Shown here: in pieces, positions 5,356 to 12,554 of the stretch | How positions within the stretch are numbered: position 1 is the stretch's first letter | Layout of the letters: every line of letters begins with the position of its first letter | UHGV virus genome: UHGV-0125336 | Direction: 5' to 3' (one strand) | From: a virus | DNA: 37,419 nt | Program-made: the position numbers and the translations under genes | The notes under the pieces: model-generated | Databases searched by the model: none | Told to the model about the DNA's origin: nothing | What the model saw: only the letters and a program-made list of their open reading frames with translations

Positions 5356-8178
5356 ATGACGGCAGAGTACATCAGGGACTGGCAACAACCGCGCCACGCA
5401 GTGGGGCGTGAAGGAACGGGGATCCCCGCTCCTGAATCCGCGCTTTCCTCCTGGCTGGATGCCTACCGGGTAGAGAACGAGCACCGCCAGGAAATGGCTG
5501 ATGCGGCGTTCTCCGCAACGCTGCTGGGCAACCTGATTAATAAAAGCCTGGACGCACAGGAAAAACAGGACAAAACCATCACACTGGCAGGAGACGCCAG
5601 AAAACAGGCACGCGGCGCGGTGGATGAAGCCATGGCCTCGCTGCGCCTGCTGCCGTCCTATCTGCGCGATCCGCTTATTCGCCACCTCTCCTTCCTGCGC
5701 AAAAAACAGGAAGCCGATCGCCGGAAAGGCAAAAAGAGCTGGCAGGCTGAACACTACGCGCGCGGAACCCTGCGCAAAATATTCGAACGTCTGGATCGCA
5801 CTGACAGACGCTGGCTGACACCGGGTTATCGCTCCCTTGCCGGACGCGAACGCCTGGACGATTTGCTTTACCTGCCGCAGCTCAACAAACACCAGATACA
5901 GACGCTGGCCACCATGACGGCGGCGATGTTCAGCAGCACCTTCGAAAAACTCTGCGATGGCTTTGGCGCGACTGATGGCGAACTGACCATGGATGTAACG
6001 CTGAAGGCGTATCAGATGCTGGCCCGCATGGCGTTACACCTGCACGCCATGCCTCCACATTATGACGCACTGACAACAGACAAAGACCGGAGGAACGAAC
6101 CGGACACGGAGCTGCTGCCGGGCGCAATCCTCCGCCTGACCTGTGCGGAATGGTGGAAACGCAAACTGTGGCTGTTACGTTGCGAGTGGAGAGAAGAACA
6201 ACTCCGCGCCGCCTGTCTGGTTTCCAGAAAAACATCGCCCTATCTGAGCCAGGACGCGTTAAGCGAGTTTCGCGCACAGCGCGAGAAAACACGCGATTTC
6301 CTGAAAAGTTTCATGCTGGAAAATGAAGACGGGTTCACGATTGATCTCGAGACGGTGTATTACGCGGGAGTAAGTAACCCGGTTCACCGTAAGGCAGAAA
6401 TGATGGCCACCATGAAGGGACTGGAACTTCTGGCCGAAGCCCGTAGCGACAGAGCGGTGTTTCTGACCGTCACCTGCCCGTCAAAATACCACGCAACAAC
6501 GGAGAACGGTCATCCGAACCCCAAATGGAACGGGGCCACCATGCGCGACTCCAGCGATTACCTGGTTAACACGTTTTTTGCGGCAGTCCGCAAAAAACTG
6601 AACCGCGACGGCCTGCGCTGGTATGGCATCCGCACGGTGGAGCCTCACCATGACGGCACCGTGCACTGGCATATGATGGTCTTTGCTCATCCGGAAGAAA
6701 TCGACAGCATCGTGGCCATCACCCGCGATATTGCCATTCAGGAAGATCGTCACGAACTGGGCGATGATATTACTCCGCGCTTTAAGGCGGAGTATGTCGA
6801 CGGCTCAAAAGGCACACCAACCAGCTATATCGCGACCTACATCGGAAAAAACCTGGACAGCCGCGCCGTAGATGGCATCGACCCGAAAACGGGCAAGCCA
6901 CGCGTTGACCACGAAACCGGAAAATCAATGGCCGAGAGCGTGGAGCGCGCCATTGGCTGGGCGCGTCTTCATCGGGTCCGCCAGTTCCAGTTCTTTGGCA
7001 TCCCCTCCCGTCAGGTATGGCGTGAACTCCGCCGCCTTGCCAGCCAGATGGCACGCAACCCGGAAGGCCCGCAACGGCTGAAGGATGATGCAATGGATGC
7101 GGTACTCGCTGCCGCTGATGCCGGGTGTTTTGCCTCCTACATTGAAAAACAGGGTGGCGTGCTTGTTCCACGCAAGGACTACCTGATTCGCACCGCCTAC
7201 GACCTCGCAGATGAGCTGAACGATTACGGCGAACAGAGCGTACAGATTTACGGGATCTGGTCACCACTCATCGGGGAATCCTCCCGTGTGTGCACGCATC
7301 CGGATAACTGGAAGCTGGTAAGACGTAAACCGGAAGCGGAAGACAGCGCCCGCGAAAATGGTTTTGACCTTCAGGGCGGCCCTGCCGCCCCTTGGACTCG
7401 TGGCAATAACTGTCCCCGTGTACAGGAAACGGACAACAACGGGACAGAACAGCCGGAAGAACGGCCAGCACCGTGGCCGCAGCTTCCTGACGGCGTTGAC
7501 GTGAACGAATGGATGCGCTCACTGAAACGGCACGAACGCCGGGCGCTGATGCGTTCGCTTCGTGACAAACAGGCAAAAAACAGCAGTGATGAAATGCAGA
7601 GCTGGACACAGAGCCGCAAACAGCAGCGGCCTTTGCCTGATAACCACGAATTACTCGCTAAAGAATGGCGGGAATCTGCCGAATCTCTCGGCCTGCATAT
7701 CGGTGAACAGCAGATGCAGCACCTGTTACGGGGCGGCAGTCTGTACGTTGACGGCAGCATCATTGCACCGCAGGGATTTGAAATTGTACGCAAACCGGAT
7801 ACCCGACCGGACAGCCGAATCACGCAGCTCTGGCAGCGCCTGAGCCGTAACCACGGCGTAAGCAGTACGGAGATCCGCCATAACCCGGTCGCCAGCTATC
7901 TGGAACAGCTGAGGGCATCAGACCCCGAAGCCGCCGCACGCCTGGCATCCACACTTCAGCAAGACCAGAACACCATGAAAACACCCGTTACCGTGCTTTC
8001 TGACATGCTGCGCGCCATCCGCGACGCAGAGCACGCACAGAGAATCAGTGAAACCACTGAACGCGCCCGCCGCAAAGCAGACCTGCTGCGGGGTGGCCTG
8101 ACCAGTGGAAACAAAAAACAGACAGAAACGGGATTCACAAATCCCGTAAATGAGCAAAAAACGCGCCGCGATATATGA
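5356..8178 (+). CDS. A: Replication initiation endonuclease, P2 gpA-like (rolling-circle)
   Basis: 940-aa ORF in the A position. Contains an HHDGTVHWHMMVF metal-binding HxH-type motif and downstream tyrosines typical of HUH rolling-circle initiators. Confidence 0.9.
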   Translation: MTAEYIRDWQQPRHAVGREGTGIPAPESALSSWLDAYRVENEHRQEMADAAFSATLLGNLINKSLDAQEKQDKTITLAGDARKQARGAVDEAMASLRLLPSYLRDPLIRHLSFLRKKQEADRRKGKKSWQAEHYARGTLRKIFERLDRTDRRWLTPGYRSLAGRERLDDLLYLPQLNKHQIQTLATMTAAMFSSTFEKLCDGFGATDGELTMDVTLKAYQMLARMALHLHAMPPHYDALTTDKDRRNEPDTELLPGAILRLTCAEWWKRKLWLLRCEWREEQLRAACLVSRKTSPYLSQDALSEFRAQREKTRDFLKSFMLENEDGFTIDLETVYYAGVSNPVHRKAEMMATMKGLELLAEARSDRAVFLTVTCPSKYHATTENGHPNPKWNGATMRDSSDYLVNTFFAAVRKKLNRDGLRWYGIRTVEPHHDGTVHWHMMVFAHPEEIDSIVAITRDIAIQEDRHELGDDITPRFKAEYVDGSKGTPTSYIATYIGKNLDSRAVDGIDPKTGKPRVDHETGKSMAESVERAIGWARLHRVRQFQFFGIPSRQVWRELRRLASQMARNPEGPQRLKDDAMDAVLAAADAGCFASYIEKQGGVLVPRKDYLIRTAYDLADELNDYGEQSVQIYGIWSPLIGESSRVCTHPDNWKLVRRKPEAEDSARENGFDLQGGPAAPWTRGNNCPRVQETDNNGTEQPEERPAPWPQLPDGVDVNEWMRSLKRHERRALMRSLRDKQAKNSSDEMQSWTQSRKQQRPLPDNHELLAKEWRESAESLGLHIGEQQMQHLLRGGSLYVDGSIIAPQGFEIVRKPDTRPDSRITQLWQRLSRNHGVSSTEIRHNPVASYLEQLRASDPEAAARLASTLQQDQNTMKTPVTVLSDMLRAIRDAEHAQRISETTERARRKADLLRGGLTSGNKKQTETGFTNPVNEQKTRRDI

Positions 8179-8254: not shown

Positions 8255-9214
8255 ATGAAAATTTGTATCGATGACGGCTCCACCAACATCAAGCTGGCAT
8301 GGACTGAGAACGGCGAACGCCGCAACGCCATCAGCCCGAACAGCTTCAAGTCGGAATGGTCTGCGCCGTTCGGTGGCACGCAGCCCGCGAACTACATGCT
8401 TGATGGCGTGCGCTATGGTTTTGATCCGGTCAGCGATCGCTTTGTCCAGACGACTGACACGCAATACCAGTACAGCGATGTGAATGTCATTGCCATTCAT
8501 CACGCGCTGGTCAAATCAGGCATCACGCCACAGGAGGTGGATGTGGTTGTCACCCTGCCACTGAGCGAGTATTTCGACACAAACGCACAGCCGGACATAG
8601 CCAACATCAACCGCAAAAAAGCGAACGTTATGCGCCCGGTGGAGTACCAGAACGGCGAAGCATTCACTATCCGTAACGTACGGGTTATGCCTGAATCCAT
8701 TCCGGCTGGCTTTAAGGCACTGGCTGACATGAGTCCGTTTGAATCCCTGCTGATTGTGGATTTAGGCGGAACCACGCTGGATGTGGCAAAGGTTCAGGGA
8801 CAACTGGCAGGTATCAGCCAGGTGTTTTGCGATCCACACGTAGGCGTTTCCCTGATGGCCGATGCCGTACTGTCGGTGATGGCCACTAACGGTATGCGTA
8901 CCAGTCACCACATCGCCAATACCATTATCGAACATCGCCATGATGAAGCCTGGCTGCGCCAGCACATCCACAATGACGCGCATTACGCCAGCCTGATGGC
9001 GGTTATTCGTGAAAAGGAAGAAACACTGAAACAACGCGTGATCCGCGCGCTGGCGGGTTTTTCGGGTTACGGGCGGGTGATGGTTGTCGGTGGCGGGGCA
9101 GAGATTGTGGCACCCGCTATCCGCGAAGCCTGCGGAGTTAATGCGACTTTCATCGCGGACGGGGTGCCACAGTTTGCTCTGGTTAATGGGCTGTACGCAA
9201 TGGGCAAGGAGTAA
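8255..9214 (+). CDS. parM: ParM/StbA-like actin-type segregation ATPase
   Basis: Collinear similarity to plasmid R1 ParM as recalled: N-terminal IDDGSTNIKL, YSDVNV..HHAL, KKAN, VMPESIPAG, DLGGTTLD, GVSL, VGGGAE, LVNG. Confidence 0.8.
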   Translation: MKICIDDGSTNIKLAWTENGERRNAISPNSFKSEWSAPFGGTQPANYMLDGVRYGFDPVSDRFVQTTDTQYQYSDVNVIAIHHALVKSGITPQEVDVVVTLPLSEYFDTNAQPDIANINRKKANVMRPVEYQNGEAFTIRNVRVMPESIPAGFKALADMSPFESLLIVDLGGTTLDVAKVQGQLAGISQVFCDPHVGVSLMADAVLSVMATNGMRTSHHIANTIIEHRHDEAWLRQHIHNDAHYASLMAVIREKEETLKQRVIRALAGFSGYGRVMVVGGGAEIVAPAIREACGVNATFIADGVPQFALVNGLYAMGKE

Positions 9215-9218
9215 ACCA

Positions 9219-9530
9219 ATGACGACACCAACCAGACGGATAAGTTTCTATCTGAAGCCCGCCGCCGTCAAGAACGAAGGCGAAGCATGCGCCTGGCTGG
9301 ACAGCCTTACACCAGAAGCCCGCAAAAGTGGTCAACGCGTGGCTTTTCTGGCCGGGCTGGCACTACTGAAAATGAATCCGGCAGAGGCTTACCGACTGGC
9401 TGCATGGGCTGATGATGAGGCGTTATCAATGACACAAACCAGGACAGAACGCCCCGCGTCACAGCCAGTATCAGCCGCACAGATAACCAGTCAGATGGCC
9501 GGAAATATCCGGGCGTTATTTCCCGAATAA
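9219..9530 (+). CDS. parR: ParR-like centromere-binding adaptor
   Basis: ISFYLKPAAV...LDSLTPEARKSGQRVAFLAGLALL...IRALFPE parallels recalled R1 ParR (IAFKLNPDV...LDSIPQGERSRLNRAALTAGLALY...LRSLFPK). AAGGAG RBS, 5 bp after parM. Confidence 0.6.
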   Translation: MTTPTRRISFYLKPAAVKNEGEACAWLDSLTPEARKSGQRVAFLAGLALLKMNPAEAYRLAAWADDEALSMTQTRTERPASQPVSAAQITSQMAGNIRALFPE

Positions 9531-9535
9531 CACAA

Positions 9536-9559
9536 CATCAGGGCGCATCCGCCCTGATG
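9536..9559. promoter_or_regulatory. Perfect 10-bp stem-loop between parR-like and the next gene
   Basis: CATCAGGGCG-CATC-CGCCCTGATG, 6 nt after the parR stop. No T-run follows, so it is a candidate operator or RNA structure, not a clean terminator. Confidence 0.35.
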
Positions 9560-9593
9560 ACTTTAACCCGGGAGCATAAACAAGGGGGACACA

Positions 9594-9926
9594 ATGCAAC
9601 ACATTGACAGAGAAAAAGCGCAGCGACTGATTGAGCGGATGGAAGCGCTGGCGAAAGAAGAAAATGTCAACATCCAAAAAATAGCTGAATGTGGCCAGAT
9701 AGTTCTTCGTCGTGAAAAAGACCTCAAACAACTGATGTCTGGCGAAACCAGCAAAACATGGACTTCAGGCGAGAAGACGGTTTATTGCAGCTTCTGCAAT
9801 AAATCCCAGTACGAAGTCACAAAGGTGATTGCCGGACCGTCTGTTTACATCTGCAATGAGTGCGTGGATTTGTGCAATGAAATTATCAGGAAAGAAGTGA
9901 CAGACAAAAAGGAAAAAAACGCATGA
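9594..9926 (+). CDS. Small protein with a C-terminal ClpX N-terminal zinc-binding-domain (C4) homolog
   Basis: The C-terminal 40 aa ([40 protein letters not shown]) is near-identical in pattern to the E. coli ClpX ZBD as recalled ([40 protein letters not shown]). No AAA+ domain follows. N-terminal 60 aa are helical and unrelated. Confidence 0.7.
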
Positions 9927-10239: not shown

Positions 10240-10731
10240 ATGCAAATTTCACCGGTTACTCTTCGTGTTGCGAAGGCGTTTATATCCAGACATCACCGAC
10301 ACAATAAACCCCCGGTGGGGCATAAATTCAGCATTGGTCTGAGAAATGATGCCGGAGAATTGATAGGTGTGGCGACAGCCGGTAGACCTGTTGCACGACA
10401 TTTGGACGATGGATTAACGCTTGAAGTAAATCGCACATGTACCACAGGAGAACGCAACGCTAACAGCGCGCTTTATGGTGCTGTCTGGCGGGCAGCAAAG
10501 GCTATGGGTTATCAACGTTGTATTACGTACACCCAGGCAGATGAATCAGGAGCATCTCTCCGCGCAGCTGGTTTTGTTCGTGTGAAAGAGCTTCCTCCAA
10601 GAAAAAGCTGGGCGGAATCAAGCGTCGCCCTGCGGAGTAAACGCGATCCGGTCGGAAACGGTGGTGTTCCTCGTGTGCTCTGGGAAATCAGGAGAATGAG
10701 TACCACTGGCATTCGCATCAAAGGAGAGTGA
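10240..10731 (+). CDS. Hypothetical protein
   Basis: 163 aa from ATG 10240, with AAGGAG RBS. Ends ...GIRIKGE. No motif identified with confidence. Confidence 0.5.
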   Translation: MQISPVTLRVAKAFISRHHRHNKPPVGHKFSIGLRNDAGELIGVATAGRPVARHLDDGLTLEVNRTCTTGERNANSALYGAVWRAAKAMGYQRCITYTQADESGASLRAAGFVRVKELPPRKSWAESSVALRSKRDPVGNGGVPRVLWEIRRMSTTGIRIKGE

Positions 10732-10996: not shown

Positions 10997-11040
10997 GGAC
11001 CCAGCAAATATACACAACCTATAAAACACTAAAGCGCCTC

Positions 11041-11065
11041 AGGGGCGCTTTTTGTTTGCACAAAA
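11041..11065 (+). terminator. Intrinsic terminator closing the accessory operon
   Basis: AGCGCC-TCAG-GGGCGCT hairpin followed by TTTTTGTTT. Confidence 0.55.
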
Positions 11066-11507: not shown

Positions 11508-12554
11508 TCAGGATGTGGGCTGGGTGTCTAACAGTGCGTAAGGGTTAAAGCGGATCACCTCTTCGCCAAGCCAGTCATTGATGTGCTTCATGGCCTCCAT
11601 GACGGGCATCAGCTCGTTAATTGCGTAAACCCGCGCGGCCTTCTCCACATCACCAAACGCACTTTTTTCGCCCGGCATCGCCCCCATCAGTTGCGGCGGA
11701 ACGCGGTGCGCAGCCAGCACATCATCACGGGATGCCGCCTTAACATTCATGAACTCATCCTTTGCGGTGATCTGCTGGAACGGCAAAATTTGCACCCCCT
11801 CTTTGCCCCCGTTAGGCGCATGAATGAGCACGTTTTTAAACGCACCACCACCACGTGCCCCCTGTAGCGTTTCTTTCAGGGAGTCCATGCTTTCGCGGTT
11901 TACCTGCGCTGCACCGATGTAGATGATGCACCCGGCGTGGGATCCATTGTCGTAATACAGTTTTCTGAACATGTCCGCCGAATGAGACAGGCTGGCCGAG
12001 AGTAATGCGCCGAGATATTCCGGCATGCCGTAGATTTCCTGGTTAATGTCAGGATTCATCAGGTGGCACACTTTGCCAGGGCGAAACTGAAACGCGTCCT
12101 TGCCATCCTGCACATACCACCATGATTCAAGATCGCTTCCGCGTCGCATGTATTTCGCCAGGGCGTGCCGTAATTTAAGCGGTTCGCCGAGCATATTGCT
12201 TCGAAGCTCAAGGAATGCGTTACCGAACACAAACCAGTCCAGCGCCAGCGCCGAGAAATCCTGCCGGGAAAGCAACGGGTGCGGGATGTAGCAACCGAGT
12301 AATACATTGCGCTTAAAGTAAAGCGCAGACTGATGCCAGGACGTTTGCCGGGCAGCTCTTGCCAGACCGTACCAGTCCACCGGGGTTTCATACCACCGCC
12401 CGTTATCAGCACAGTACATATTGTCCAGCAGGTCATGCCCGGTCAGGCGATAAGGACCATCAAATGTGAATGCACTGAGCGATGATTCTTTCCTGAGCGC
12501 ATCAGCGAGATCAATGCGTGAACTCATGCGCACTTTTTTATTTTTTCTGCTCAT
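11508..12554 (-). CDS. Q: Portal protein, P2 gpQ-like
   Basis: 348-aa ORF with P2-typical position and orientation (Q and P leftward, divergent from O). Confidence 0.85.
   Translation of the reverse strand: MSRKNKKVRMSSRIDLADALRKESSLSAFTFDGPYRLTGHDLLDNMYCADNGRWYETPVDWYGLARAARQTSWHQSALYFKRNVLLGCYIPHPLLSRQDFSALALDWFVFGNAFLELRSNMLGEPLKLRHALAKYMRRGSDLESWWYVQDGKDAFQFRPGKVCHLMNPDINQEIYGMPEYLGALLSASLSHSADMFRKLYYDNGSHAGCIIYIGAAQVNRESMDSLKETLQGARGGGAFKNVLIHAPNGGKEGVQILPFQQITAKDEFMNVKAASRDDVLAAHRVPPQLMGAMPGEKSAFGDVEKAARVYAINELMPVMEAMKHINDWLGEEVIRFNPYALLDTQPTS

Follow-up and report, generated by a model that had tools for sequence, protein, structure and literature searches.

A prophage of Escherichia coli encodes a 110-residue protein that ends in what is, judged by its residues, a canonical zinc-binding domain (ZBD) of the ClpX type, standing free of any AAA+ motor. 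We tentatively propose that this protein mimics the ClpX N-domain in soluble form; it would damp N-domain-dependent recognition by ClpX(P) and may thereby protect an early phage protein or reprogram proteolysis. The window analysed here comprises 37,419 nucleotides of the virus genome UHGV-0125336. As the initial annotation had supposed, it is a P2-like prophage: over the stretch tested it is 100% identical to Escherichia phage PhiR44_2, and it is 97% identical to phage P88, placing it among the P88-like Xuanwuvirus of the Peduoviridae. In E. coli chromosomes this prophage is integrated beside pdxB. The ZBD protein itself is 100% identical in PhiR44_2 and in E. coli chromosomes. The gene, the parts of its product and the flanking elements are listed in Table 1.

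Table 1. The ZBD gene, the segments encoding its domains and the neighbouring elements, in window coordinates.
Feature	Position	Strand	Description
Replication gene A	5356-8178		
parM/parR	8255-9530		Actin-type partition cassette, ParM/StbA and ParR/Plasmid_stab_B
Hairpin	9536-9559		Perfect 10-bp stem with 4-nt loop between parR and the ZBD gene; + strand lacks a T-run
Shine-Dalgarno-like sequence	9582-9589	+	AAGGGGGA, 4 nt 5' of the ZBD-gene ATG; read off the sequence
ZBD protein CDS	9594-9926	+	ATG start, TGA stop, 110 aa; WP_001163782.1; phrog_6797
N-terminal domain, residues 1-48	9594-9737	+	Predicted helical hairpin (H6-23, H27-48); family-specific
Flexible linker, residues 49-62	9738-9779	+	Variable length; pLDDT <50 at residues 54-60
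ClpX-type ZBD, residues 63-102	9780-9899	+	Zinc ligands C65, C68, C87, C90; pocket F67, I97
C-terminal tail and stop codon	9900-9926	+	Short, charged (TDKKEKNA); unconserved in the family alignment
orf104, 104 aa	9923-10237	+	ATG overlaps the ZBD stop (ATGA); phrog_26213 and phrog_660, both without assigned function
XF1762-family gene	10240-10731		
Bidirectional terminator-like hairpin	11031-11051		Closes the rightward string A, parM, parR, ZBD, orf104, XF1762, orf87
Portal gene	11508-12554	−	

Residues 64-99 of the product match the Pfam family zf-C4_ClpX (PF06689; E=6.8e-18, profile positions 2-38 of 39) with 64.7 bits, the curated gathering score being 27 bits, and when the PDB was searched with phmmer the E. 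coli ClpX ZBD ranked first, as 1ovx (E=6.9e-20) and 2ds5 (E=2.5e-19). The protein is covered end to end by PHROG 6797 (E=2e-58), to which PHROG assigns no function. It had been estimated from the letters that the last 40 residues resemble the ClpX ZBD at roughly 75-80% and include both cysteine pairs. By direct count, 31 of the 40 residues at positions 63-102 are identical to E. coli ClpX 13-52 in gene numbering (77.5%), and C65/C68 and C87/C90 align with ClpX C15/C18 and C37/C40 at the same CxxC-(18)-CxxC spacing, the four zinc cysteines being invariant in the alignment of the family. The initial annotation's further statement that no AAA+ module follows was borne out. The protein terminates at residue 110, 8 residues past the ZBD helix; Walker A/B, pore loops and the IGF loop are absent after the ZBD; the next ORF, orf104, bears no AAA+ signature; and the NCBIfam clpX equivalog TIGR00382 (PRK05342) yields 51 bits over profile positions 6-54 only, failing its cut-off of 370.75 bits. 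On these grounds the description of the protein as a ZBD without a motor holds.

To place the domain among bona fide ClpX ZBDs we used 24 distinct cores, each followed by a Walker A motif and taken from a genome scan that had returned mostly host clpX genes, a sample biased by its search patterns. In these ZBDs, conservation reaches 95% or more at 24 positions, of which the phage protein keeps 23, the one exception being L→V at residue 78. By alignment, F67 and I97 correspond to ClpX Phe16 and Ile46, which form the hydrophobic side pocket for λO, trigger factor, SspB and RssB (PMC7804408). The helix spanning residues 88-100, the equivalent of the C-terminal dimer helix, aligns with identity to ClpX at V91, L93, C94, I97 and I98, as do Y85 and I86 in the ZBD β-hairpin. 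The retained conserved positions and pocket equivalents thus speak for a ClpX-type ZBD over a generic C4 ribbon, and by sequence the domain is a genuine member of the canonical type; zinc binding and constitutive dimerisation would be expected of such a sequence. We also considered host-specific mimicry of enterobacterial ClpX. In the same pattern-biased sample, 26-32 of the 40 core residues are identical to ClpX of many phyla (31 for E. coli), including Psychromonas, Marinomonas, SAR86, Actinomycetota, Spirochaetia and others, and since the core is similarly identical to ClpX across phyla, the idea of a tailored enterobacterial mimic was dropped.

The remainder of the protein is specific to its family. 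AlphaFold2, run with a 15-row alignment, predicts the N-terminal helical hairpin with pLDDT 77-89 over residues 11-40. In the same monomer model, built without metal, the ZBD has the low confidence (pLDDT 58-72) to be anticipated when an obligate, metal-dependent dimer is predicted as a single chain. When 1.84 billion representative proteins were searched with a profile of the first 58 residues, 15 matches came back, all the intact ones ending in a ClpX-type ZBD, which argues for a fixed two-domain plan whose N-domain occurs nowhere else. The N-terminal domain belongs to no Pfam family, and Foldseek found no match for the hairpin in the PDB, returning only 2ds5, for the ZBD. In the family alignment, the conserved positions of the N-domain appear to be largely of a structural kind, hydrophobic and heptad-like, and little of its surface is conserved. 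We infer that the hairpin probably oligomerises.

Recent capture of the domain from host clpX was rejected. The ZBD segment shares 62% nucleotide identity with E. coli clpX, the same codon encodes only 12 of the 32 identical residues, and the proportion of synonymous differences (pS) is 0.96; the saturation of synonymous sites indicates a likeness of long standing that selection has maintained. When the E. coli member is compared with the Salmonella one, 31 of 38 ZBD residues are identical (dN 0.13, dS ~1.2), as opposed to 12 of 49 in the N-domain, and between the protein of the window and its D6 homolog the corresponding values are 25 of 38 and 20 of 49. With dN/dS of the ZBD at ~0.1-0.3, the substitution pattern points to strong purifying selection confined to the ZBD, alongside an N-domain that diverges fast. 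Linker length differs among homologs, the Salmonella member having an 11-residue insertion. Decayed members also occur: P0014 has lost 40 residues in frame, so that its first helix runs straight into the ZBD's second half, and frameshifts interrupt P0126 and P0128 beyond the N-domain. Such decayed copies, together with the majority of P2-like prophages that do without the gene, imply that it is dispensable in some lineages.

The same conservation pattern effectively refutes the reading of the gene as a clpX 5' end that was once captured and has lost its function, which we regard as extremely improbable. The three decayed members are what one would cite for it. Against it, the two-domain plan has been kept across divergence that saturates synonymous sites, the ZBD evolves at the low dN/dS given above, the ribosome-binding site is good, and intact copies are present in 112 E. 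coli genomes and in other genera.

Across 5426 complete E. coli genomes, matches to the gene fall at 233 places, 128 chromosomal and 105 on plasmids; 221 genomes have any match, and 112 have a near-full-length copy (at least 80% coverage, all contexts). The gene is thus present in ~2-4% of complete E. coli genomes, ST131 and UTI89-type strains included, as well as in P1/D6-like phage-plasmids, and relatives extend to E. albertii, Salmonella and other hosts and genera. In the window it lies between replication gene A with parM/parR on one side and the portal gene on the other, which is the cos-proximal gpA-gpQ hotspot of P2-like phages, a site of variable occupancy. According to Rousset et al. 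2022, this hotspot houses old and tin in P2 and is home to many defence systems (PMC9122126).

The surroundings of the gene change from phage to phage. In P2-like prophages of Salmonella, whose homolog (P0019) is 43% identical, and of one further host, the ZBD gene uses the same slot; it is the last rightward gene after gpA and precedes ogr and the portal gene, with other neighbours and without parMR. In D6/P1-like phage-plasmids, ~50% identical homologs lie directly 3' of an ead/Ea22-like gene, in D6 within the early accessory cluster. A lambdoid prophage carries its homolog between the replication region (replication/nin) and rusA, again directly after an ead/Ea22-like gene. The ZBD gene is therefore a mobile single-gene module downstream of replication genes in three types of temperate phage, and its placement in a rightward gene string holds wherever orientation was seen. 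No phage neighbour is conserved across the P88-like, Salmonella P2-like, D6 and lambdoid contexts, and this lack of a conserved phage partner points to a host target.

Two candidate partnerships within the window were set aside. A functional unit with parM/parR is contradicted by distribution: the parMR cassette is found in 1307 of the 5426 complete E. coli genomes, almost always chromosomal, compared with ~112, over all contexts, for the near-full-length ZBD gene, which is present in a minority of parMR-carrying prophages, and the Salmonella P2-like, D6 and lambdoid copies have no parMR. That an actin-type partition cassette resides within an integrated P2-like prophage is an observation in its own right; passages of Rousset et al. 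suggest that it may allow such prophages to persist as plasmids (PMC9122126). A unit with the overlapping orf104 is unsupported outside the P88 lineage, orf104 being absent beside the homologs in Salmonella P2-like prophages, D6 and the lambdoid prophage. The C-terminal third of orf104 matches an Ea22-type phrog, and this match, along with the ead/Ea22-like gene 5' of the homologs in D6 and the lambdoid prophage, suggests that the ZBD gene travels with Ea22-type accessory genes.

Downstream of orf104, the XF1762-family protein (NCBIfam, E=5e-61) has further matches to phrog_1384, annotated as 'Mom-like DNA modification protein', and to the Pfam Mom family, the latter a weak one. Copies of its gene that are ~97% identical in nucleotide sequence occur in lambdoid, P22-like and Kapi1-type phages, and because near-identical copies are found in such unlike phages, it looks like a shuffled accessory module, possibly with an anti-restriction role. 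The terminator-like hairpin beyond it separates the rightward accessory string from the leftward portal/terminase operon. On the other side of the ZBD gene, homology with other parMR-carrying prophages breaks at 9530-9618, around the hairpin in the intergenic gap, so that this hairpin marks a module boundary and could be a boundary, attenuator or RNA-stability element. Long hairpins that are not homologous to it also lie upstream of the ZBD gene in other P2-like loci (e.g. L009, ~5900-5960). A scan found no promoter directly upstream of the ZBD gene, and an alignment of five loci revealed no conserved one.

In the mechanism that we tentatively favour, a canonical ClpX ZBD would be displayed on a flexible tether from a small, probably oligomerising helical hairpin. 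Since it has no AAA+ motor, the protein could not itself unfold substrates or feed ClpP. Phage ZBD dimers would occupy the ligands of ClpX's own ZBDs, namely the SspB tail, RssB and trigger factor, and would also titrate substrates recognised through the N-domain, among them λO-type replication initiators, MuA and FtsZ. N-domain-dependent ClpX(P) activity would be selectively damped in this way, and degradation of pore-recognised, ssrA-type substrates would be left intact. This division follows the published requirements, in which MuA, FtsZ, SspB and RssB depend on the ClpX N-domain and ssrA does not (PMC5415555). The favoured role would be to shield a short-lived early protein of the phage, such as a replication initiator, or else to reprogram host proteolysis during lytic development. 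Protection of an early protein is suggested by the recurrent position of the gene 3' of replication genes and by the precedent of λO, the degradation of which requires the ZBD (PMC7804408).

Published biochemistry of the ZBD supplied in trans makes such a decoy plausible by analogy. The isolated ZBD dimerises and binds RssB, and when added in trans it inhibits RssB-mediated degradation of σS by ClpXP; this inhibition in vitro took 5-20 µM free ZBD against 0.6 µM ClpXP, a 10- to 30-fold excess (PMC7226468). Given that excess, a phage decoy would need either high expression or avidity, and the N-terminal hairpin may supply the latter by imitating the clustered ZBD dimers of the ClpX hexamer. In the window, the XB-like motif [LIVM]R[LIVM][LIVM][KR] has three matches, none of which falls in the ZBD ORF or in any real gene, and on its residues the protein carries the receptor and not an SspB-type ligand. 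A more elaborate form of the proposal, which we consider possible but doubtful, is a natural multivalent 'receptor-domain decoy' that switches off adaptor- or N-domain-dependent ClpXP and thereby stabilises an initiator or σS, or blocks Mu- or λ-type competitors or ClpXP-triggered abortive-infection or toxin-antitoxin systems.

Counting against a decoy, cyanobacterial sigma factors, which are unrelated to proteolysis, contain zf-C4_ClpX (PMC11119718), showing that the fold can act as a general protein-binding module. The phage protein might accordingly be a dimerisation or peptide-binding module working outside ClpXP, for instance by binding a phage replication or regulatory protein; other standalone proteins with the domain (phrog_12435 and the actinobacterial 136-aa P0049/P0098) and the constant proximity of the gene to replication genes agree with this. 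We nonetheless consider it unlikely, as no phage neighbour is conserved across contexts, no real gene of the phage encodes an XB-like motif, and the ZBD is almost identical to that of ClpX at positions important for ClpX ligands, which would be needless for a phage-specific ligand. A further reading has the phage ZBD, in place of free homodimers, pairing with the ZBD of a ClpX subunit and tethering the hairpin atop the ring, where it would either block the ring or bring in cargo to be degraded; such cargo might be a repressor, a protein of a competitor or one of the host's defence proteins. The identity of Y85, I86, V91, L93, C94, I97 and I98 to ClpX would allow for such heterodimers, a fast-evolving N-domain (12-20 of 49 residues identical) fits a module that tracks a variable target, and tethering to the ZBD suffices to trigger target degradation, as the CLIPPER degraders demonstrate (PMC12373786). 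However, ZBD dimers are constitutive, as evidenced by the rapid crosslinking of the isolated ZBD (PMC7226468), making exchange into assembled ClpX uncertain, and an adaptor would sit poorly with an N-domain in which few surface residues are conserved and a gene context that yields no cargo candidate. We judge this pairing to be rather improbable.

The genomic site invites a role in conflict between phages, either as superinfection exclusion of phages that depend on the ClpX N-domain (Mu-type transposition, λ-type replication control) or as anti-defence, with toxin-antitoxin or abortive-infection systems kept from being activated through ClpXP. The ZBD gene is variable cargo 3' of parMR, in the gpA-gpQ hotspot that it shares with old, tin and many defence systems according to passages of Rousset et al. 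(PMC9122126), and MuA recognition needs the N-domain (PMC5415555). The same passages state that the hotspot also holds non-defence cargo (PMC9122126), and members of the family are also located in early lytic regions of lambdoid prophages and D6, not in defence islands; moreover, no promoter-like site lies directly upstream to indicate expression in the lysogen. Membership in a known defence system was rejected, as PADLOC-DB 2.0 returned no match at E≤0.1 for the ZBD protein or five neighbours. A role in inter-phage conflict is thus, in our assessment, very unlikely. The soluble decoy remains the preferred reading and is set beside known systems below.

The closest relative by fold is the E. 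coli ClpX N-domain itself (residues 1-60; PDB 1OVX, 2DS5-2DS8), which belongs to the same PF06689 family and shares the core identity, cysteine spacing, and dimer-helix and pocket residues described above. The phage version differs in being encoded by a temperate phage, in lying at the C-terminus of a 110-aa protein after a hairpin and linker, and in having no AAA+ module, IGF loop or pore loops. The recombinant isolated ZBD is likewise motor-less, and its RssB binding and σS inhibition are the activity that we would propose, by analogy, for the phage protein (PMC7226468 Fig. 1d). That construct is an engineered fragment, whereas the phage protein is a natural, selected gene product and has its own N-terminal domain in addition. 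The ZBD is also carried off the motor by further zf-C4_ClpX proteins (phrog_12435 of Pseudomonas phages, proteins of Caulobacter phage Cr30, P0049/P0098 and the cyanobacterial sigma factors), but with different partner domains in a different order; the N-terminal hairpin of the present family was not found in them, and our search turned up a described function for none of these ZBD proteins. P0049 and P0098, each of 136 aa and recurrent among the homolog matches, form an unrelated standalone family with an N-terminal ClpX-type ZBD and a conserved C-terminal domain of ~60 aa.

Several small accessory proteins of phages retune ATP-dependent proteolysis in the host to the phage's advantage, by other means. 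T4 PinA and T7 Gp4.5 act on Lon, and λ RexB on ClpXP substrates. The nearest precedent found is SPO1 Gp53, which acts on ClpC (PMC6873191). Gp53, PinA, Gp4.5 and RexB are all unrelated in sequence to their targets, whereas the ZBD protein would copy the receptor domain of the protease. Among host proteins, the anti-adaptors IraD, IraM and IraP sequester RssB, a result that the phage ZBD would match if it titrated RssB; the RssB site bound by IraD overlaps that for the ZBD (PMC7226468). The Ira proteins show no sequence kinship to the phage protein, are regulated by host stress and are specific to RssB only. The ZBD gene shares its variable locus, the P2 gpA-gpQ hotspot, with old, tin, retrons and PARIS-like systems (PMC9122126), but its product matches no defence model and its family also has members outside the hotspot.

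The initial annotation treated such a protein as undescribed in P2-like prophages, which stands for its function, as far as our search went, and not for its existence. Newer PGAP records in RefSeq name it 'ClpX C4-type zinc finger protein', and the exact accession, WP_001163782, appears among the gpA-gpQ hotspot cargo in Table S5A of Rousset et al. 2022, within the entry 'StbA + Plasmid_stab_B + zf-C4_ClpX + hypothetical…', although the protein is not discussed in the examined main-text passages of that paper (PMC9122126). Older GenBank/nr records mis-name the family 'carboxylate--amine ligase', as in P88 gp19 (L004, 3001-3333), D6 orf93 (L003, 3980-4300) and P0001-P0016. Our literature search found neither a functional study of any phage standalone ClpX ZBD or of the accessions of the ZBD protein nor a phage inhibitor of ClpX. 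Hence the domain call is not new, whereas the decoy mechanism would be new among phage modulators of host proteases.

Under the control of ClpXP are σS, antitoxins, proteins of SOS mutagenesis and of cell division, and proteins by which λ and Mu replicate or transpose, and much of its specificity passes through the N-terminal zinc domain. If the decoy mechanism is true, widespread prophages carry a ready-made selective inhibitor of the N-domain-dependent functions of ClpXP, which would also be a simple genetic tool, and the protein would be a new example of phages retuning host proteolysis. It would in that case be the first protease inhibitor to mimic the protease's own substrate-docking domain. 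Even if the decoy fails, the ClpX ZBD circulates in phages as an independent protein-binding module.
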